The position numbers were made by a program, and so were the translations under genes. A DNA stretch of 55,202 bases, counting the filler, from Sphacelaria rigidula (Eukaryota), in assembly GCA_964200075.2 (NCBI GenBank). It is 6 parts of 6 records of this genome, joined end to end, with 100 filler letters (N's around TTAATTAATTAA, not from the genome) between each part and the next. Parts side by side here need not be neighbours in the genome. Positions count along the whole stretch, not along the records: positions 18,437 to 27,554 come from CAXNAA020009259.1; 5 more parts are not named here. One strand, 5' to 3'. The notes beneath the pieces are model-generated. The model was not told where the DNA came from. It saw only the letters and a program-made list of their open reading frames with translations, and did not search any database. Below are positions 12,795 through 34,584 of this stretch, in pieces (the first letter of the stretch is position 1; each line of letters opens with the position of its first letter).

Positions 12795-15233
12795 CTAAAG
12801 GCCGTCTTCATATTCTGTCAAGTCGGCCAGGTGGTCAATATCATAGCAATCCCAAGATTCTGGCAACTCCGATCCGAACACAAAGTCTGTCACGTCAACA
12901 TAATTTTCCCCTCCTTCACCGCCGTCGTCGTCATCGTCGTCGTCGTCGTGGTCGCCACCCAAAAGGAGTGCTTCCAGCTCACATACCTCTTCCTGAGTAG
13001 GGGTTGGCGCCTCTTGACATTCGAAGTCATCGTCGTCGTCGTCCGGGAGAGGTGGCACCAGCTGACAGTCCTCCTCCTGAGCAGGGCGTGGCACCTCTTT
13101 ACATTCGAGGTCATCGTCGTCGTCATTCGGGAGAGGTGGCACCAGCTGATCAAACGAGTATTGAGGGGGGGTTGTCACCTCCTTACATTCGAGGTCATCG
13201 TTGTCCTTGTCCGGGAGAGGTGGCGATAGCTGACAGACCTCCTCCTGAGCTGGGCGTGGCACCTCTTTACATTCGAGGTCATCGTTGTCCTTGTTCGGGA
13301 GCGGTGGCGAGAGCTGACAGGTGTCCTCCTGAGCAGGGCGTGACACTTCTTGACATTCAAGGTCATCGCGGTCGTCGTTTGCGAGAGGTGGCGACAGCTG
13401 ATAGACCTCCTCCTGAGCAGGGCGTGGCACCTCTTCACATTCGAGGTCGTCGTCGTCGTCATCCGGAAGAGGTGGCACCAGCTGACAGACGTCCTCCTGA
13501 GCTGGGCGTGGCACCTCCTTACATTCGAGATCATCGCTGTCCTTGTTCGAGAGCGGTGGCGAGAGCTGACAGACGTCGTCCTGAGCTGGGCGTGGCATAT
13601 CTTTACATTCGAGGTCATCGCGGCCGTCGTTCGAGAGAGGTGGCGACAGCTGACAGACCTCCTCCTGAGCAGGACGTGGCACCTCTTCACATTCGAGGTC
13701 GTCACCGTCGTCATCCGGGAGAGGTGGCGATAGCTGACAGGCGTCCTCCTGAGCAGGGCGTGGCACCTCTTTCAACTCGAGGTCATCGTCGTCATCGTCC
13801 GGGAGAGGTGGCGTCAGCTGACAGACCTCCTCCTGAGCAGGGAGTGACACATCTTTCCATCCCTCGCCTTCTAGACCCTCTACGATAGATACTACCGTAG
13901 CCCAGTCAGACGGTTCTAAGCTCTGCGTGCCTTCCTCCGTCTCCGCTTCCGCCGCAGCTGTAATCCACGTGTTGCCGCCTCTCTCGTCAGATCCCGGCTC
14001 CCCCGTACACTCGTCAGACTCCAGCTCCTCTGCCCACTCTGCGAATACGTCCGCTATGAGCTGGTCAATGTCTTCGTCTTCCTCGCCCCTTCTCCCGTCC
14101 GACATCAGTTCCGTGATGGGCGTACCAATCATGGCGAGCCTTTCCTCCTTCCCCGCACCAGCCTCGATCGCCACTCCTTTAGACGGCGTGACTGGCTGAG
14201 CAACTGCTACTTTCTCCTGGCTTTCTCCCTCTACTGGCACTTCAGTTGCAGACGCAAGAGTTAGACCCCCTACCTCTTCATCTCGTCCTTCCGCCGCCGT
14301 GTTTTCTGACGTACATGTAGCGATGGTCGCGTCCTCTGCCGATCCCGTCCTTTCCCTCCCCGCTGCCTCCCCTACCGCAGGCATGGCGACCATGACATCC
14401 TCCTTGTCCTGCCTCAGCCCTTCTCCCATCGCCACTCCTGCTGTAGGCGCAGCGACGTCACCACCCTTCTCGCTCCCGTCGCCTTGGCCGTTCTCCGACA
14501 CTGTCGGGGTCTCTGTTTGAGTAGAATCTTCAACCATTTCCAAGCTTTTCACTCTGGCTGCCTCTGGCGACACGACTGTTGTAGGTGCAGTCGTGCCCAA
14601 CACTGCCTTCATCCCATTGTTGTACCCAAGTCCCCTCACCTCCCAGGGGTGCCGCCTCCTTTTCCTTGTGCCGAAAAACTCCGCGGGAGACAGACCGGGC
14701 GGGAAGGTCGGGCCGTCATCACGCTCCTGTCCAAGATAGTCCTCCCGCTCACGTTCCCGAGATGTACCTTCTTCTGTAGCCAACACTTCTCCTGAAGTTC
14801 GATCGACGGGCTCCGGTCCAGGGCTGGTTAACAAAGCGGATAAAGCGGCCATGTGCCGAGAAGATGACGGCGACGAAGGGGCAGATGGAGACGAAGAAGC
14901 ACCGGGAGTTGAGGGTGAAGCCAACAACGCTCTTTCGTGGTCCCACGCATCATCCTCATCATGGGGGCCGGGCTGGTATGTGCACGCGGTCATCTTCAAA
15001 TTTCTGTTGTCTTGGACTTGATTCGGGTGTAAAGAAGCGCCCGCTGCAGAGAGGAGCAAAATCAAGATGTTATCGTCTTCGCCCACCGCACACTGCAGGG
15101 CTAACAGCATGAAGCTGGCCCATTGTTCCGTCGAGGCTTGCTTGTAGATCGCCGCGAATATTTCCTGAGCGCGCGGGCGTAACTCGTCGGGGTGGCGTCG
15201 CGGTGGCCAGGACCTCGGCCAATCGCAGTACAC
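12795..15233 (-). CDS. Intronless 812-aa ORF: ankyrin-family-like N-terminal helices, low-complexity acidic middle, 28-aa acidic Cys/Pro repeats
   Basis: Longest ORF in the window. N-terminal RAQEIFAAIYKQASTEQWASFMLLALQCAVGEDDNILILLLSAAGA resembles the leader and first repeat of brown-algal ankyrin-repeat proteins. The start is GTG and no in-frame ATG was found upstream, so it may be an internal exon or a pseudogene. Confidence 0.6.
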   Translation of the reverse strand: MYCDWPRSWPPRRHPDELRPRAQEIFAAIYKQASTEQWASFMLLALQCAVGEDDNILILLLSAAGASLHPNQVQDNRNLKMTACTYQPGPHDEDDAWDHERALLASPSTPGASSSPSAPSSPSSSRHMAALSALLTSPGPEPVDRTSGEVLATEEGTSREREREDYLGQERDDGPTFPPGLSPAEFFGTRKRRRHPWEVRGLGYNNGMKAVLGTTAPTTVVSPEAARVKSLEMVEDSTQTETPTVSENGQGDGSEKGGDVAAPTAGVAMGEGLRQDKEDVMVAMPAVGEAAGRERTGSAEDATIATCTSENTAAEGRDEEVGGLTLASATEVPVEGESQEKVAVAQPVTPSKGVAIEAGAGKEERLAMIGTPITELMSDGRRGEEDEDIDQLIADVFAEWAEELESDECTGEPGSDERGGNTWITAAAEAETEEGTQSLEPSDWATVVSIVEGLEGEGWKDVSLPAQEEVCQLTPPLPDDDDDDLELKEVPRPAQEDACQLSPPLPDDDGDDLECEEVPRPAQEEVCQLSPPLSNDGRDDLECKDMPRPAQDDVCQLSPPLSNKDSDDLECKEVPRPAQEDVCQLVPPLPDDDDDDLECEEVPRPAQEEVYQLSPPLANDDRDDLECQEVSRPAQEDTCQLSPPLPNKDNDDLECKEVPRPAQEEVCQLSPPLPDKDNDDLECKEVTTPPQYSFDQLVPPLPNDDDDDLECKEVPRPAQEEDCQLVPPLPDDDDDDFECQEAPTPTQEEVCELEALLLGGDHDDDDDDDDGGEGGENYVDVTDFVFGSELPESWDCYDIDHLADLTEYEDGL
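12970..13845 (-). repeat. 84-bp coding tandem repeat, ~10.5 units
   Basis: Unit PAQEEVCQLSPPLPDDDDDDLECKEVPR; 84-bp period (TCGARGTC at 13021, 13105, 13189...). Confidence 0.95.
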
Positions 15234-15410
15234 GCCCTCGCCAACATAGTAGTCACCGGCTTTAGCTTGATCCTGCCAGTATCGCCCGTTGTTCAGCTGC
15301 GCAACATCGCATTGTGTATCGTCGCAGTTGAAGCGGCGTTGTCAGCGAACAGGGGAAAGACTGGCAGATACAGGCTTGTTCACGCTAATCATCCAAATTA
15401 TATTCATCAG

Positions 15411-18943: not shown

Positions 18944-19355
18944 TTTTCACATGCGGAGTGAAAAAAGATACCTATGGTGGTGACCTAACTGTTGCTAGCG
19001 TGGCGCATAAGCAATGTGCAGCACACGCTGGTCGCGTGAACAGCTCGGTACAGTACGAGTAGCCTCCCATAAGTAATAATCATTCCGATGTCAGGAGGAC
19101 GTGGTTACGGTAACAAACTGCATCGAAGTCGCAAGACCTGTGAATACTAGAGAGTTTGGTCTTTATGATCTGCATCCTCAAAATTAAAAACGGTTCTGAA
19201 AACCTGAGGGAAGGTGACCGCTTCGGGTCCAGTTAAACATCCGAAAAAACCATCGAATAGCAATACGAAACTTTTCCGGGATCGGCATCGGACAGTGCTC
19301 GAACAACGGAACAGAAATCGACAAGTTACCGTTCGTATTAGAAAACAATGCGCAT
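18944..19355 (+). repeat. Left arm of the inverted repeat bracketing the Gypsy relic
   Basis: 18944-19098 is the reverse complement of 27401-27554 apart from one substitution and one indel; 19101-19355 is a more diverged reverse complement of 26961-27202. Confidence 0.92.
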
Positions 19356-19801: not shown

Positions 19802-21750
19802 ATGTCAACTATTCTCAAACGTAGTCTGACGACGGTTAACCCTTGGACCGCGGTGCGGGTAGTCGCTCACAACTCTGATCCAGACGCCACTATCGCCGAC
19901 GATGACCAGGATGACGATGGTTGGACTCCCACGAGTGCCTACTGCAGAGGCAAGAAGAAGAACAACCGGCGGGATGACGACGACAACGGTGGTGGAGGCC
20001 CACGCCGCCGCCATGGCTGCGGAGGATCCTCCTCGGGCGGTTTCGGACCGAACCGCACGGTCCACAATAACCGCGGCCCGACCCGGAAGAAACACGTAGG
20101 CAATTACTATTCTTCCGGGTCTTCCGCGACAGGCTGGAACCGATCTAGCACATACCTGCCCCCCTTGGGTTTGACGACACCAAGACAAGTGATACCTAAT
20201 ATGGCCAATGTTTCGGCTCGTATTTTAGGTTATCTGATATGGACACACCAGACCGCCCATTGTCTTCTACTGCAGCCCGCGCTTTAGCAACCGCTGCGGC
20301 TGACAAACAACGTTCCGTAGCTAGTAAAAAACCAGCTTCCGATAGAGTCGAATTTGCCCGAATAGCTGCTATGTAGAGACAGTATATTCAGATGGATGTG
20401 CAAAAGCTCCGGGATATTAAAAACATGCCTGCTGCGGATAACGAAGATTCGGGACAGTTTACTTATGCCCTCATTAAACCCACTCGCCGCACTGTTTGCA
20501 ACATCCTTCACTTGGCGGATGCAACTGGCGCCAAACGTGTCGAATATTCCGATTGGGTAGAAGGCTGGCAGACCCCTTTGCATACAGCATTGCATAGATC
20601 CATCAGCCGCCGCTCTCCCGTCATCGCTGCTTCTTTAACGCAGATCATCGAGGGCTTCCTCGCCCGAATGGGTCCGAATCGTTCCAAGGGGAAGACAGGC
20701 TCGGTATTGCTCTCTGATCTGAAAGGGCGTCTGATCGTTTTTGTTTGATCAAAGTGACCAAGCTAGTGCTATCCAGAGGCTGAGTTTTTTTGTTGTCGCA
20801 TCGGATGTCCCTTTCGCGGATTACCTCCGCGAATATAAGCTTTTGGTCTCCGGTACACTACGGGTGTCGGACGCCAAAACGGGCCGAGTGACGCAATGTG
20901 TCAGACTTAGGTTCGCAATAGCGTTGCTGAACAATATTCGGCTCTGATACCGTCGTTATTTCCGGGTGTCTTGGCGCATCGCGAGGTGCCTTACGCCTCT
21001 GCTGATGCTACGTGGCCTGCTTTTGTACACCAAGAGGGTAATCTAACGCCCGCCATACGTGGCAAGCCTTCTACGCCTGTGAGTTCACAACCTACGGTTG
21101 TGTCCTCCGCTCATGCCCAAGGGTCTCGCGGCAGGAGTTCGAGTCCATCTCGCGCTTCATGGACCCCCGACGCGGTTGCCGGTTCAGTTATGCATGTTCA
21201 AAGAACGGAGGTGCATTCAGTGCGAGTTTTGATGGTCGGCCGTTTTCCGAGGAAACTTGGGAAAATGTTTATTTGACTTCAACCACGGCATTCATCACAG
21301 ATGATTCCCATTTGTGGAACTTACCTATTTCGTCTCCTGCTAGACGCAATGCCTTCAGCAGTCATACCAACAGTTGCATCATCTGTAGTTTTCAAGGCCA
21401 CAGTATGCGTGACTACGACAGTCCATGCACCAATGTCTTTGATCTCATGAACCCTGAATTGCAGGGCAATGAACCCGCGTGGCGGCGATGGCAAAAACGC
21501 ATGCGCGACTATCGCCCACCAAATCAAAATTATCGTATTAATTCGAAATCAACGTGGCCACAAGAGCTCTAATCGCGATCGCCGACAAAAAAACAACAAG
21601 GCAAGCCCTCGCCAGAACGATCATGATTCTCGCGACAATAAACGACCCCCTGATAGACACCAGCGGACGGGGCCGACCCACAACTTGAACCCCAACACCA
21701 GGAACACTGGTACTTTCACTACAGGTCGCGTAGATCCATGCCGTGCCGAC
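19802..21750 (+). pseudogene. gag-like ORF, frameshifted
   Basis: Fragments 19802-20287, 20392-20748, 20741-20947, 20971-21276, 21159-21572; degenerate zinc knuckle CIICSFQGHSMRDY near 21375. Confidence 0.7.
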
Positions 21751-21837
21751 GCCGGCGTTCTACGGTCTTCCGTGCCGCCGACAGCAGTAGCAAAGACTTT
21801 TTCAGCACAGCCCGCGGAGTTCATGACTGAGATTGCT

Positions 21838-22135
21838 CACCCGGCTCCCCCAGCACTATGCAGGAGCGTTACAGACGGCATTTCAAATCGACCCCCGTCT
21901 CCAACCTCCACACACTTTTCAACACAGCCCAGAGCCCGCGACTAGGATTATTCGCCCGGCCCCCCCGGCACTATGCAGGAGCGTTACAGACGGCACTTCA
22001 AATCGACCCCCGTCTCCAACCTCCACACACTTTTCAACACAGCCCGCAGACCCCGCAACTAGGATTGTTCGCCCGGCTCCCCCGGCACAATGCAGGAGCG
22101 CAACTGACGGTCGTTCAAACCGACCCCCGTCTTCA
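21838..22135 (+). repeat. ~116-bp tandem repeat, 2.5 units, at the gag-pol junction
   Basis: CCCGGCYCCCC...GCACTATGCAGGAGCG units start at ~21838, 21953 and 22070. Confidence 0.9.
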
Positions 22136-23109
22136 TCCCTCCACACACCGCGTAACAATTGTGTCACCCCGCGACTCAGACCTACACCCGGCCCTGAACT
22201 TGATCCTTCAGTGCCTAGTATAAGTCTGAGGTGTGGGAGGACCAACCGCCAGTCCCTCAGGCAAAGGCTTCCCTCAGCGACCGCACGCACAAGTAGTAGC
22301 AAGCCTTTTTCAGCTGACCTAAGTGTTGCTGATTTGCACTTGACCACATCGGATCATGTAAATCCCAATCAATTGGATCGAGCTCCTTCCCCGCGGTTTT
22401 CAACACGCGCGGATCTACCTTCGGCCGGTTCTAACAACAACCGCCCCAAAATACCTTCGGCTATGACCCCCCAGACAAGCTTGCCTACGGAAAACAGCCC
22501 AGAAGTTTCGCTCCGTCATGCCCCGATGCTGACCCCATCCACCTGACTGGATGCAGTCGTGGTATCATCCCAAAATGTTTCGGAAGTTCCTCGACCATTG
22601 TCACGGCGAAAGAGAGAGCCCCGTGAACATGCTCCCCAGGACGCGCGCGCATCATCACGTACACCTCTTTCGAGCGGAACTCCTCGACCTCAATCTCTCC
22701 AAAATGCGACAACTTTGAGCTCGACGGCTCTATCAATTATCACGGGAGAAACTGAATAAAATATTTCTGACGTCAATGCTTCTACAATCAACGACTCCAG
22801 CCCCACAGAATCTGGATCCCCCGCGGACGGCGATCCCTATTAACCGAAAGCGATCATTTACGAAATCGCCGATAGTAACTCTGACCGTGCCACACCTGGA
22901 AATAATACCGTCCACACTCCTCACTGGTGACAAATCTGACTCACCGGCGGATCACCCGCCGTGCGTTTTTGCTGTCAGCCCCGCTGATCCTGACCAATTT
23001 ACCTTGCCGGAACACGGTCCGGATCTTGTCGGCGGTAAAGTGTCTGTAGATCCGGCCACTTTCACTACACGCGTTGCGATCCACTCTGGTCCAAACGCTA
23101 CCACGCCTA

Positions 23110-23419
23110 CGAAATGCGTATCCTTGTTGGTCAGCGACAGCCGCAAACCTTTATTCGAGAATCAACATGGAAACACATCAAACAGACTGGTGCTGCTACT
23201 GCAGCTTGCGAAACCACCACCCAACCTCGAGTATGGGGCGGCTTCGGTGATTCTACCGCACCCCTGACGGCACGAAGATCCCCACGTCTCAGTGTGCAAT
23301 TCTTTCACAACATCACTCATTCTGCCAGCCTGAAAGTCTGGGCATACATTGTCCCTGACACCACAATGCACCACGCCATGTTATTGGGCAGAGATAGCTA
23401 TATGCGATTTAATAGATGA
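23110..23419 (+). pseudogene. Retropepsin-like aspartic protease (active site degraded)
   Basis: CVSLLVSDS/PQTFI (degraded LLDSGS), flap VWGGFG and C-terminal MLLGRDSY. Confidence 0.75.
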
Positions 23420-24169
23420 ACCTACCGCACGCTTCCACCACCATCGCCACACTCCACGCCTTGTGGAGAATGCAACCTTGAACACTTCAGTACACTCCAC
23501 GGCGCCCTGGCCTACCAAATTAATACTCAAACATTCGGAGCTGCTTACCACCTGCGATACAACGGTAGTGTTGGCATTACACTCCCCGACGATACTCAAC
23601 TTTTAGAAGTTGCAATAGTTCGCCGAAATGGCATGCCAGCACTTACGGCTCATTATCTTGCCGAAATGTTACCCCGTATTGGCGCATCAGCCGACACAGA
23701 ACATTTTGTCTCGGCAGGACAACAACCCCTCCCTCTTACGAGTCATGCTAACTTGGAACCCGGCAATATTTTGAGAACCACCGCTGCTCCCCTAATGCAC
23801 ATCTTACTCGAGACGTGCGTAACAGAGCCTGCTGCGCCAAACGCCACATCTCCGGCGGAGTGAGTCCATTGTGTCGATGAAACTTATTTCGACCTCGCCT
23901 CTGCGACTCCACCCCAGGCCTACACCGTGGATCCTGCCCAGTCAAATTCCGATCCTCCAGCTAAAGTGCTTCAACGCTCATCACCAGATTCTCGGAATAG
24001 TTTCTTGCAAATGTGAAACCAACTGCCGACACACATGCGCGACATCAATTTTGATCTTCATGGGCCCGGCTGGGGACCGGCAGTCATCCAAGAACTCAGT
24101 GATGTCCTGCTACAGTACCAGGACCGACTTTCCCGATCCAAGACGGATCTTGGGCATTGAAAAACGCTG

Positions 24170-25030
24170 TCCTTTAAGGTTACCCTCCAACCCGGTGTCT
24201 CGCCGATCTCTTCTCGGCCATACTGGACAAACCCAATCCTTACCGAGAAGGTTAACGCTATCTTGGATGCATATTGGAGGCGGGATTAATACAACATTCC
24301 TCCTCTCCTTGGACTTCGCCCCTTGTGGTCGTCCCCAAAAAGGATGGAAACATACGCATAACCGTGAATTACCAACGGTTAAACCGCGTCACTGTGATCG
24401 GTAAACTTCAAATTCCCCGCATAGATGAAGTCTTCGAATCCTTAGGCTAAGGAAAAATATTCAGCACCTTCGACCTCGCTTCTGGGTTCTTTCAGAATGC
24501 TTTTCACCCTGACATAGTCCCACTGACAGCCTTTTGTACCTCGTCCAAACTCTACGAGTGGCTTCGAATACCACGAGGCACTGCCACTGCCCCGGGATGC
24601 TTCCAACGCTTAATGCAACGCGTCACCGAGGGTCTCGAGCACATCATCATGTACCTGGATGACGCTATCGATTTCAATGCCTCACCTCTTGCACATATCC
24701 GCACTCCACGAGAATTTCTCTCTCCCCTACGCACACACGATTTGAGACTGTCTCCATCCAAAGCTCGCGTTGGTGCGACTGACCAGGATTTCCTGAGGCA
24801 TTCCATTTCGCCAGCAGGCCTGCATCCGGATACAAAGTCAAGACGATGACTGCCTTGCCGATGCCAACCAACATTCCTCAACTTCGCTCATTGTTGGGCG
24901 GACTATCCTACTACCGCACATTTTTGCCGAATTTATCTAAACGGATTCGCCCCCTTCCTGAGTTACTCAAGAAAGGGGCCGTGTTTTCCTTCACAACCGA
25001 TGTGGAAAATATCACCCGCGAATTAGTCGT
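24170..25030 (+). pseudogene. Ty3/Gypsy reverse transcriptase and connection domain
   Basis: SPWTSPLVVVPKKDGNIRITVNYQRLN, IPRIDEV, FSTFDLASGFFQ, YLDD at 24652-24663, QLRSLLGGLSYYRTFLPN; in-frame TAA at 24448-24450. Confidence 0.95.
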
Positions 25031-25089
25031 GCGCGAACAACATCCTATCAACGCAGAGACCCAAGACTGCTCTCTACAGCTCCATACAC

Positions 25090-25851
25090 AAACGACCCAA
25101 CTGGAAAGTTCTATCTCGAATTGCCTCGCGACATCCAGGGCAAGGACACCAAACCCCGCGTCTCCGTGCATAGATTCAAACCATGCAGGAACCCGCATGA
25201 TACAAGCGACATGCCCAAGTACCTGCCTGCCGGATTCACACAGTATGTTCTCAACAGCTACTCGACCAAGTCCCCGCCCTACCACGTTACCACCGATGAC
25301 GTGACGGAACAGTCCCTCCGATTGACCGTGTCCACCATCTCCGGTCACCAGACAAACCGTGGTCGAGGTTAATTACTGTCATGTATAAGACCCACTGGAA
25401 CGGTCTCCGAAGAGCGTCTTGGGAACGCGAATCCGACCTTCAATTGCACCGCCGTGCAATCCTCCTGTACTGGACGCAATCTCAATATCAGAATCTTGCT
25501 CACAACAAGAAATATCGCAACATGCGTCGTAGCGCAGCAGCCCGCGAACTTCACCGCGACCAGGGACTACGCTTCGCCGCCGATGGTTACGAACTTGTAC
25601 CCACCAAGACTTGTTAGACGAAGTTCTTTGCAAACGAGCGAATACTACCCAAGGGCAGCTATCCTTGGTTTAAAGGCAGCGAAAACCTCTGGTGGTTGGG
25701 TCAGACTCACTCCGCTAACCTGGTTTCTGCCGACACATACATCGTGCGCTTCATCAATGACCCTGGACCGATACAGCTCAAGCTCCCGCCAGCACTGTAC
25801 ACCACCAACCCATCTGCACCACGTGGATCCTGGTGCCTTCAGCGCCTTTAG
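25090..25851 (+). pseudogene. Integrase C-terminal tail: SH3/GPY-F-like, chromo-like and PWWP-like segments
   Basis: YLELPRDIQG...RVSVHRFKP; TVSTISGHQ...MYKTHWNGLRRASWERESDL; LPKGSYPWFKGSENLWWLGQ...TYIVRFINDPG. RNase H and integrase core are not seen. Confidence 0.7.
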
Positions 25852-26960
25852 TCCAAAGGACTTCGCCGCGGTCTCCAGCGCAACATCGACCACACCCACG
25901 ACGTCCACATCCGCTTTGATCGACGCCCCTTCGCCGCAACTGTTGCCCCCCTTCTGTAGCATTGTTTGCCCTCCTTTCTTCACTAGGATCCTATTCTACG
26001 ACATCCACAACAGGCCCACCTATATCGGACGATGATCGAAAAATTGTTGACGATACCCACCATCTACGACTGCTGGAGCTATAGTATCCCCTTTCGGCTG
26101 GCGCTCGATCTCGTTGGATCACCGATTTTCAGATTTTGCTTCCAACCAACATGCGTGGTCGCATACTGATCTTGCAATTCTTTCTCTTTTCCCCCTAGGT
26201 TGAAGCTCTGCTCCCTTATGTACCTTTGGATTCCCCCACGTCGAAGCTCTGCTCCCTGTTGTACCTCCCTGCCGTTTTTTCCTCTTTGGATTACCCCAGG
26301 TTGAAGCTCCCTCCCTGTTGTACCTCTCTGTTGTCCCCCTTCGTTTTTCCAGGACGCCGAAGCAATTTGTGCTTCTTCGTTGATTGCTAGCACAAGCAGT
26401 TTGTGCTTTCGCGTTTCGAAGCAGTTTTTCTGCTCCTCAAAGCAGTATATGCTTCCCTTCTTTTGAGGTGTGGGAGTGGGTACGGGAGTGTTGGATACGG
26501 GAGTGTTTCCTTACAATGCCTTGAGGCAAATCTGTTGCATACGGGAGCGTTTCCTTAGGTATGCTTTATTAGCCGCTCATGACTTTACGAGCAAAGAAAA
26601 ACCTTAGTTTTCGCTGCTTTGAGCAGAATCCTCATACTGTAATAAAGGTTCGTCTGGGTGGGTTAGTGTCATGACGCATATTTGCCTGTTGCGATGCCGC
26701 TTCAGACCCGTTGAAGAGTCTGGCTATTTGCATTTAGGGAATTCTAAGACCTAAGACTGCAGTTCTGCCTAGAGTTGGTCAGGTACGAGTGTGAGTTAGT
26801 ATATGGCAGAGACGATGATGGCTCGAGCGTGCCTTTGTGCGAGCGAGGGCCACCCGCTGTCACTAGCGCCTACTGCCCCTCTCTCAGCAAAGAGGTCTAA
26901 CGCCGGTGAGACTGAGTTACTGAGCGTGCTACTGGATTGATTGAGTAGATACTGGAAGGT

Positions 26961-27554
26961 ATGCGAATTGTTTTCTAATACGAACGGTAACTTGTCGATT
27001 ACTGTTCCGTTCTTCAAGGGCTGCCTGATGCCGATTCCCGAAAGGTTTGGTGTTGCTGTTCGATGGTATCCTCGGATGTTTAACTGCCACCTTCCCTCAG
27101 GTTTTGAGAGCCGTTTGAAGTTTGTGGTTACAGTTGATAAAAATCAAACTCTCTAGCTTTCACAGATGTTGCGACTTCGGTGCAGTTTGTTACCGTGACC
27201 ACCTCTGAGCAGACGGGAGTACGCGCTAGAGCAACGAAAGGCAGCTATGATCCGATTTGCCTGCCGTACTGCCGACAGCGTCGGGTGAAAGCCACAAGAC
27301 CCTTGCTGTCGGCGGTTGATGGCGTGGGTCTCGAATACAAAGACATGCGGTTGATCGTAGAGCACTCTCGTCTCTTTTCTCAACTTGTGATAATCCATGA
27401 CCTCCTGACATCGGAATGATTATTACTTATGGGAGGCTACTCGTACTGTACCGAGCTTCCACGCGACCAGCGTGTGCTGCACATTGCTTATGCGCCACGC
27501 TAGCAACAGTTAGGTCACCACCATAGGTATCTTTTTTCACTCCGCATGTGAAAA
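26961..27554 (-). repeat. Right arm of the inverted repeat (LTR-like), runs to contig end
   Basis: Reverse complement of 18944-19355 with ~195 extra bp (27203-27400). Confidence 0.9.
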
Positions 27555-32179: not shown

Positions 32180-33310
32180 TGTAAGAGGTATGTTTATGTA
32201 CTCCGTATCTTGACGGATTACCTAACATCCTCACCCCTGGCCGCGGGTACTAGCCAGTTCCCGCAATCAGTCTTCCGGGCGCATATCTTTGTTTCGAATC
32301 AACGGCCCATCATTATACTGTCCCCCTTTTCCCCAACGCATCACACCGCGATCCGTAACACCCCCCGTCAGTCCTAGGATTGAAAACCCTGGGACTGACG
32401 TGGTTCACACGATAGATCGCCGCGTTACCATGTCCTTCTTCCGAGTGCTCAGCGTTGGGGTGTAGCCGTCGATCTTGATAACCGCTCTGCCGGGTTAGAC
32501 CACGTGGGGAAATTGACCACCGTGCAGAACGATCCCTTTTTCTCCATTAATTAGACCCTGAAGCGGTTCCGGTACCCTGTTCCTTCACCGCATATTTCCG
32601 CACATCCGACGGCGTCATCTCTTCCCAATCCCCATCTTCATACTTGATACAGTAATACGGCTGACGGCAGTCGAACACTTCCCCGTCGAACTCCTGCTGC
32701 TCACCTTGGCTGTCCACAAACTGTTTACGTATTCTGGTCCCTCCAGGAATGAGTCGCAAAGCTTCATCCCGAGGGAAAGAGTCTCTTTCCGCTCGAGATG
32801 GGTTAACGGATAGGCGTGGTTTGGTTTACGGATTAAATAGTTCCCACAAGGCATGAAACACGTCCAACCGTAGCCCAGTGAAACTGTCCAAAACTTCCTC
32901 CTCTGAAAGCCAGTGAGATTCGACTCCGTCATGAAACAACCTCCGATAGGCCCACTCCCAGGACGACCCTGATTCTAACACCACTTTCCTATCTGTCAAT
33001 ATGTACAGTTGCGGAACGGTCGTGATCTCCTGAGCTAACCCCAAAATCTTCATCGGCGGCGTCCTGCTGTCACTAGGGTTTGCAGCCCTCAGAAATCCTG
33101 CTCCTTGCCGCTGTAGTTTGCCCGATATGTTCCCCCAAATCACCAAAGACTTCCACCACTGCTTTGATGCATAGCTCCCCCCCCCTGCCCCGGTGCCCAG
33201 CAACACCGTTACTGGTGAGCGGTGGCTACTCTTGCTGTGGTGCCAAACTTCAGCTTGTACCCACAGCTGTTGTACATCGCTCCTACTCGCTTCGGCTAAA
33301 ATGGCGTTCG
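32180..33310 (-). mobile_element. Internally deleted Gypsy-like LTR element relic: protease joined to a chromo-like and Tudor-like tail, PPT and 3' LTR
   Basis: VTVLLGTGAGGGSY (LLDTGA with D>G); one frame 33206-32547 with a single internal TAA; PPT GACGGGGGG followed by TGTTACGG at 32360. LTR end uncertain (32180 or 31968). Confidence 0.7.
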
Positions 33311-33324
33311 CGCTGTTCTAAGAC

Positions 33325-34263
33325 GCATGGGAAACTCCTCGCTCCCTGTCAACCTGTTCGAAAACACATGCAAAACTCCTGGCTCCCCTGTCAACCTGCT
33401 CGAAAACATATGGGAAACTCCTGGCTCCCTGTCAACTTGTTCGAAAACACATGGGAAGTCCTGGATCCCTGTCAACCTGCTCGAAAACACATGGGAAACT
33501 CCTGGCCCCCTGTCAACCTGTTCGAAAACACATGGGAAACTCCTGGCTCCCCTGTCAACCTGTTCGAAAACACATGGGAAATCCTGGATCTCTGTCAACC
33601 TGGTCGCACGCACAAGGGAACCTCCTGGATCCCTGTCAACCTGTTCGAAAACACATGCAAAACTCCTGGCTCCCCTGTCGACCTGTTCGAAAACATATGG
33701 GAAGTCCTGGCTCTCTGTCAACCTGCTCGAAAACACATGGGAAACTCCTGGATCCCTGTCAACCTGCTCGAAAACACATGCAAAACTCCTGGCTTCCCTG
33801 TCAACCTGTTCGAAAACATATGGGAAACTCCTGGCTCTCTGTCAACCTGTTCGAAAACATATGGGAAATCCTGGACCCCTGTCAACCTGATCGAAAACAC
33901 ATGGGAAACTCCTCGCTCCCTGTCAACCTGTTCGAAAACACATGCAAAACTCCTGGCTCCCCTGTCAACCTGTTCGAAAACACATGGGAAATCCTGGCTC
34001 TCTGTCAACCTGCTCGAAAACACATGGGAAGTCCTGGATCCCTGTCAATCTGTTCGAAAACACATGGGAAACTCCTGGCTCTCCTGTCAACCTGTTCGAA
34101 AACACATGTGAAACTCCTGGCTCCGCTGTCAACTTGTTCGAAAACATACGGGAAATCCTGGCTCCCTGTCAACCTGCTCGAAAACACATGCAAAACTCCT
34201 GGACCCCTGTCAATCTGTTCGAAAACACATGGAAAGTCCTGGCTCTCCTGTCAACCTGTTCGA
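33325..34263. repeat. 40-42-bp minisatellite, ~23 units
   Basis: Consensus CTGTCAACCTGTTCGAAAACACATGGGAAACTCCTGGCTCCC. Confidence 0.97.
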
Positions 34264-34584
34264 CAAGCAAGGCCTTGACATCTTGAGCCTTCGTCCTCGC
34301 CCATTTTCCTGTATGCAATCAAATCCTGCTTGTTTGCTGCATGGTGTAGGCATATATATATATATATGGTTCATACAACTTTCTCGTACATCCATTCGAT
34401 GTCCGGCTTGTATGTTGGCAACTTGCATAGTCTCCACGATAAACACACTAGTCGTTCATTCCAAGCCAACGACTTCCATTTGATTATTTTCAGTGTAAAT
34501 CCGGCAAAGGAACGTGTGGAACCCATGGACTCTCAGGACCAAAAGAATGTAGCCCTGCCCCCCGGGACGATTATAGCGCGCGCA

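Follow-up and report, generated by a model that had tools for sequence, protein, structure and literature searches.

A second conserved module, probably a Tudor/SH3-type barrel, follows the chromo-like domain of a brown-algal Gypsy integrase

Brown algae, to our knowledge, lack PRC2, H3K9/H3K27 methylation marks and DNA methylation, and the question of how their retrotransposons choose insertion sites is approached here through the tail of a Gypsy integrase in Sphacelaria rigidula (assembly GCA_964200075.2), encoded on contig G000:C9259 of the 244 Mb genome that was searched. The whole stretch of DNA analysed, called the window hereafter, is 55,202 nts long, filler included, consists of six contigs separated by N spacers, and is covered by four read runs, which were guessed to be RNA but are possibly DNA. 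A first-pass annotation of the window had proposed that this tail combines a chromo-like domain with a PWWP-like module into a dual reader of methylated histones.

The window copy is dead. Its parts are as follows:

19864..26960, + strand: what is left of a Ty3/Gypsy LTR retrotransposon that lacks both its ends (blastn against other copies)
23123..24274, + strand: decayed pol N-terminal/protease region (tblastn with P0192/P0194, ~41% identity)
24262..24846, + strand: broken reverse transcriptase (Pfam RVT_1, E 6.7e-15 on 24451-24846; tblastn)
25027..25110, + strand: two internal deletion sites (breaks in collinearity with L036-L054, which are larger copies)
25110..25315, + strand: remainder of the integrase C-terminal region, upstream of the tail (tblastn, residues 416-523 of P0001 on 25064-25369, 75% identity)
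25316..25476, + strand: module 1, chromo-like domain with one of three cage aromatics; frameshift near 25371
25477..25641, + strand: basic linker, conserved (net charge +6 in the median); the window copy has a stop at 25618-25620
25642..25848, + strand: module 2, conserved, ~70 aa, predicted Tudor/SH3-like barrel (family HMM match 25642-25845)
25849..25914, + strand: premature stop, then the short rest of the pol C-terminus
26667..26960, + strand: partial 3′ LTR, cut at 26960 (TG start after a G-rich tract)

In blastn alignments, other copies extend beyond 19864 and beyond 26960 on either side. Approximately 2.1-2.4 kb, from RNase H to the integrase core, are gone at 25027, and ~0.18 kb at 25110. 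The LTR starts at the same point in copy L044, after an unrelated flank, while other copies run past 26960; 279 LTR candidates were found in the genome. No paired LTRs were found in the larger genome stretches searched (sets of 20 and 18), hence the copies are left undated by LTR divergence. Three ~115-bp tandem repeats (21825-22171) lie within the element and are shared with other copies. The flanks of the element, 18944-19355 and 26961-27554, are mutual inverted repeats in four blocks (83-100%), the explanation being either a long-armed inverted repeat of the host or an artefact of assembly. Elsewhere in the window, an acidic open frame of 848 aa (12795-15341, - strand), in which a 28-aa (84-nt) unit is repeated in tandem about ten times, has no Pfam match.

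All the peptides on which the first-pass annotation relied are located in the window sequence: TVSTISGHQ at 25325-25351, YKTHWNGLRRASWERESDL at 25384-25440, LPKGSY...GQTHS at 25645-25713 and TYIVRFINDPGPI at 25735-25773. That they share one frame interrupted by one stop holds from YKTHW to DPGPI, with the stop at 25618-25620. It does not hold for TVSTISGHQ: the chromo-like domain is split by a short indel near 25371, and this peptide lies in another frame. Intact frames continue for ~23 codons beyond the stop at 25849-25851, which is therefore premature. The 'PW' of LPKGSYPWFKG is a decay private to the window copy, as L or R is found there in other copies, and it is not at the position of the PWWP motif.

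Other copies were used to establish whether the tail belongs to pol. A DNA search of the genome gave 422 candidates, of which 40 were scored, the 39 other copies being 89-92% identical, and a protein search gave 1227 candidate places, 145 of them scored. Nineteen copies from the former and 30 from the latter, minus two duplicates, make a set of 47. The integrase core end through module 2 is read in a single frame in 26 of the 47 copies (stop-free in 9) and both modules share one frame in 41 (stop-free there in 24), in a set that is biased towards intactness, since it consists of the best-scoring search matches. Locus L002 has a natural 707-aa frame, which contains Integrase_H2C2 (E 2e-10) and rve (E 6.5e-5) along with both modules, and its top PDB match is the Ty3 Gag-Pol (E 1.4e-24). 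The element has the H2C2 and rve domains, the LTR start and the RT-RNase H-integrase order of Ty3/Gypsy elements, and this order is found in full-length relatives and genome copies alike. Nine full-length relatives of 1272-2422 aa carry the same tail at their end. The two-module tail is real: the first-pass annotation was right to assign it to a Gypsy integrase, and the further conserved module that it described is indeed read in frame with pol.

The tail is also widespread. Forty homologues stood among 939 candidates, representatives at E<=0.001 number 675, and the named relatives come from Nemacystus decipiens, Ectocarpus sp. CCAP 1310/34 and Undaria. Conservation of both modules extends to diverged families. 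In module 2, the motifs WWLG, RFLD, PGP and WCLQ are present in 85-95% of the covering rows among 198 homologous proteins. One Undaria gene model (P0039), a kinase/cyclic-nucleotide-binding protein with module 1 at its end, probably arose when annotation fused the gene with an inserted element. When the module 2 profile was run against 8000 scored long proteins, the 21 matches included no recognisable host gene with the module, which is weak evidence regarding a host donor.

Module 2 is under purifying selection. Pairwise dN/dS among the 47 copies is 0.16 for the integrase core, 0.22 for the C-terminal region, 0.18 for module 1, 0.33 for the linker and about 0.22 for module 2, values drawn from non-independent pairs of copies that fall into about three subfamilies and whose synonymous sites are partly saturated (pS ~0.57). 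The ratio of non-synonymous to synonymous variants in module 2 is 0.11 for those common to at least 5 copies versus 0.58 for singletons; across the tail and integrase regions, the corresponding ranges are 0.04-0.11 and 0.58-1.44.

Module 1 is likely similar to chromodomains, judging from profile matches. Pfam Chromo matches 18 of 91 members (best E 2e-4), a weak similarity that bears out the chromo-like domain of the first-pass annotation. The Swi6 chromodomain aligns with it end to end, weakly (E 0.55), and the PDB search with alignment A1 placed four chromodomain matches on module 1 (Swi6, MPP8; E 0.55-1). Aromatic residues occupy the three cage positions in 3, 118 and 4 of 132 rows, respectively, which differs from the Y-W-Y cage of group I. 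Plant chromodomains of group II are described in the accessible text of PMC3605345 as missing the first and third cage aromatics, the pattern that module 1 follows in most rows.

What, then, is module 2? The best PDB match over all searches is the Tudor domain of PHF19, a weak one (E 0.015-0.044, from three overlapping profile searches in which a single protein was matched). It accounts for three of the 7 matches of alignment A1 at E<=10 (E 0.024-0.031) and for all those of alignment A2, in which 40 residues spanning three strands align gaplessly (E 0.015-0.017), while alignment A4 also matched true SH3 domains, those of ASAP1 (E 0.11-0.42). Among Pfam families, Agenet matches 9 of 91 members (best E 0.012; weak) and the myosin SH3-like family 9 of 91 and 6 of 24, with the lowest E value of any family (0.0054), so that the SH3-like matches are no weaker than those to Tudor-family barrels. 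Neighbours in two atlas searches, to be taken as leads, are mostly of Tudor type, all below 0.9; in the second search, only 1 of the 10 best family matches is in the same clan as the top match. Aligned by hhalign with 19 Agenet-like repeats of the host, module 2 scores 20.4 (probability 26%), compared with a maximum of 14.9 in 30 column shuffles and 22.3 for a bona fide Tudor control. Genome searches with Agenet or Tudor_2 did not retrieve the family of the window copy, Tudor_2 giving 0 matches. A Royal-family/SH3-type barrel is nevertheless probable given these weak matches, and the predicted fold of module 2 is, fairly probably, a Tudor-like barrel of five strands to which the family has added a short extension of its own. 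An origin by internal duplication of the integrase C-terminal region finds no support (hhalign 12.4; shuffles up to 18.6).

Host open frames of 1468-2025 aa on G000:C5818, C1530 and C3767 (L111-L120, L123, L124) contain many Agenet/Tudor-like repeats, 18 of which were scored on C5818; these proteins are candidate multivalent chromatin readers.

The original proposal, that module 2 is a divergent PWWP domain, is very improbable. The W-W pair of strand 2, which is conserved, and the R-F motif of strand 3 are reminiscent of PWWP domains, whose motif is loosely conserved according to the accessible text of PMC6222470, and one of 91 members touches Pfam PWWP (E 0.12). However, the flanking motif positions hold proline in only 1 and 2 of 94 rows, PWWP structures are absent from all PDB profile searches of module 2, and the PWWP search of the genome returned 2 host exons and no copy of the window family. 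Alignment of module 2 with these two exons, a shallow template, scored 13.9, inside the shuffles (maximum 15.8). PWWP domains are further described as having 1-6 bundled helices behind a barrel of five strands (PMC6222470). In 61 proteins, the median distance from the last conserved strand-like motif to the end of the short, variable C-terminus is 23 residues, leaving scant space for such a bundle. The PWWP identity was rejected in the light of the motif, the Pfam and PDB matches, the genome search and the hhalign score, and the profiles favour a Tudor/Agenet/SH3-like module.

The PHF1 cage, as given in the accessible text of PMC7492083, consists of Trp41, Tyr47, Phe65 and Phe71, together with Asp67; its positions were mapped by spacing onto the alignment of PHF19 with module 2. 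On that alignment, the equivalents of Tyr47 and Phe65 are aromatic in 83 and 84 of 94 rows, and that of Asp67 is Asp in 84, whereas the equivalents of Trp41 and Phe71, small residues and Pro, are aromatic in 0 of 94. Hence only two of the four cage positions of the PHF1/19 type are aromatic. Five further aromatics (P0002 positions 156, 157, 164, 200 and 211) are conserved in 80-84 of 94 rows and might complete a pocket. The dual methyl-lysine reader of the first-pass annotation is doubtful because both aromatic cages are incomplete, with one aromatic out of three in module 1 and two out of four in module 2. The chromatin background that it invoked is supported: the accessible text of PMC13076208 reports that PRC2 subunits are absent from brown algae and that H3K79me2 and H4K20me3 are linked to repression. 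Statements specific to Ectocarpus reach the host of the window only by extension.

Three accounts of the function of the tail were weighed. The one favoured here, with somewhat more confidence than doubt, is that the tail tethers the integration complex to chromatin through several weak contacts and not through complete methyl-lysine cages. Module 2 would fold as a Tudor- or SH3-type barrel, the tail would remain fused to the integrase, and the basic linker and the barrel would touch nucleosomal DNA, a histone tail or a host chromatin protein, contacts that could bias insertion as is thought for group II chromodomains. Chromo and Tudor-type domains without a cage are known to bind nucleic acid instead of methyl-lysine (PMC6222470, accessible text), and there are precedents for integrase chromodomains steering insertion (PMC11541908, PMC5348765, as far as their accessible texts go). 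Against this account, for brown-algal ECR elements, the available part of bioRxiv 10.64898/2025.12.07.692804 indicates that an intact chromodomain alone does not predict centromere targeting. Any recognition of methyl-lysine would go through a partial pocket (conserved Trp, Phe and Asp), possibly completed by other conserved aromatics, but this addition is itself doubtful. Alternatively, module 2 may be a true Tudor reader of methyl-lysine or methyl-arginine with a rebuilt cage, which, together with the chromo-like domain, would read a brown-algal mark such as H4K20me3, H3K79me2 or H3K36me3 and steer insertion. The conserved equivalents of Tyr47, Phe65 and Asp67, the five additional aromatics, the H3K36me3-reading function of the closest PDB match and the presence of reader-type domains in all four Ectocarpus Gypsy lineages (PMC12477816, accessible text) speak for this account. 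It is made unlikely by the missing Trp41 and Phe71 equivalents, since PHF1 W41A abolishes binding and even the three-aromatic cage of MTF2 binds weakly (PMC7492083, accessible text), and by the rarity of aromatics at cage positions 1 and 3 of the chromo-like domain.

The ASAP1 matches of alignment A4 imply that module 2 could also be a non-reader SH3-like barrel. Its role in the intasome or particle would then be structural (oligomerisation, DNA binding or host-protein binding) and independent of chromatin state, in agreement with the myosin SH3-like matches and with the incomplete cages of both modules. However, module 2 sits behind the chromo-like domain, which is where targeting modules are placed, and its profile matches the host Agenet-like repeats better than shuffles do, whereas it does not resemble the C-terminal region of the element's integrase. 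A structural role appears even less probable than a rebuilt reader. More speculative still, and improbable, is that brown-algal Gypsy integrases carry a tandem chromo and Tudor reader with a pocket rebuilt for H3K79me2 and/or H4K20me3, and that another Gypsy lineage, only distantly related, arrived at this chromo-like plus Tudor layout by convergence. If true, no dual-reader integrase would precede it, and H3K79 methylation would gain a natural probe.

These findings correct the expected ligand, as a textbook cage is found in neither module. Where published work describes one reader domain per lineage, the very abundant group described here keeps a second, Pfam-invisible domain under selection, and its tail is a small, testable protein fragment. 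Should the tail prove mark-specific, insertion would be targeted by a design not seen before, and methylation of H3K79 or H4K20 would possibly have a new reader.

The relation of this element to known Gypsy lineages bears on its novelty. The first-pass annotation had taken chromoviruses as comparison, which was wrong: the accessible text of PMC12477816 states that the chromodomain Gypsy lineages of Ectocarpus are not chromoviruses. It divides the Gypsy elements of Ectocarpus into four lineages. Three have a putative chromodomain, accompanied by NADAR in lineage IV, and the fourth, Gypsy-10, has a Tudor domain and was termed the first transposable element with such a domain. Lineage IV (e.g. 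Gypsy-12_Ec32), with its putative C-terminal chromodomain, is the nearest. NADAR precedes RT in three of eight scanned relatives with the same tail (P0193, P0194 and P0197; one of them is a chimeric gene model), and an Ectocarpus sp. protein, P0217, combines the same tail with NADAR. The integrases of the NADAR relatives group tightly with the window family, which lies very close to, yet outside, the 99/96-supported subclade containing the NADAR rows, in a tree of 32 rows that leaves out P0193 and reference chromoviruses (of 18 loci, 5 had no integrase match and 3 were dropped as too short). NADAR had 2 matches in the genome, neither adjoining pol of the window family. Since NADAR is found in close relatives and not in the window family, the latter is best described as a sister group of the NADAR-bearing elements. 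In contrast to the tail described here, lineage IV was reported with a chromodomain only and no second domain, a comparison that concerns the accessible text of PMC12477816, as opposed to its figures or FASTA files.

Gypsy-10_Ec32 likewise comes from a brown alga, and its integrase has a Tudor-type domain at the C-terminus (PMC12477816, accessible text). A separate Gypsy lineage of the Sphacelaria genome has a clear PTM/DIR17-type Tudor (PF21743; 76 matches), from which a correspondence to Gypsy-10 is inferred. It differs from the window family, in which PF21743 matches 0 of 91 members and leaves module 2 unmatched; the integrases are 22-25% identical, and that of the PTM-type lineage stands far away in the tree on a long branch. 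A comparison of module 2 with the PTM-type Tudor for shared origin (hhalign probability 2%) is uninformative because module 1 scores <1% against canonical chromodomains with the same shallow profiles. A decayed fragment of this lineage, 86% identical to L027, lies in the window itself (32550-33044, - strand), adjoined by an array of ~20 copies of a 41-bp repeat (33303-34286). The conserved stretch preceding the Tudor of this lineage looks chromo-like by eye; Pfam Chromo was found in none of 8 members, and a PDB search returned no chromodomain for it. A third Gypsy-type family (L063-L079) has a single, more canonical chromodomain at its extreme end and dominates the top Pfam Chromo matches; unlike the window family, its protein stops ~35 residues past the chromodomain.

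A chromo-like and Tudor-like tandem on one integrase was not found in a literature search of texts, although figures, supplements and Repbase entries might mention one. A preprint on an MSH6 reader has no bearing on transposable elements. The accessible texts of PMC12477816, PMC11541908, bioRxiv 10.64898/2025.12.07.692804, bioRxiv 10.1101/2021.11.30.470311 and PMC5348765 contain no tandem tail, and that of PMC3350952 neither a tandem nor a Tudor case. Already published are a chromodomain on this Gypsy group and a Tudor domain on another Gypsy, the tandem being apparently unreported.

Among solved structures, the PHF1/PHF19 Tudor remains the closest to module 2, which differs from it by an extra conserved C-terminal motif in addition to the cage residues. 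Among integrases, those of ECR/ECR-like elements, Chronos and chromoviruses similarly have a chromodomain-type module fused after the integrase, but are described with a single chromodomain. Finally, ECR-1 keeps all three cage aromatics, according to the part of its description available, unlike the chromo-like domain of the window family.
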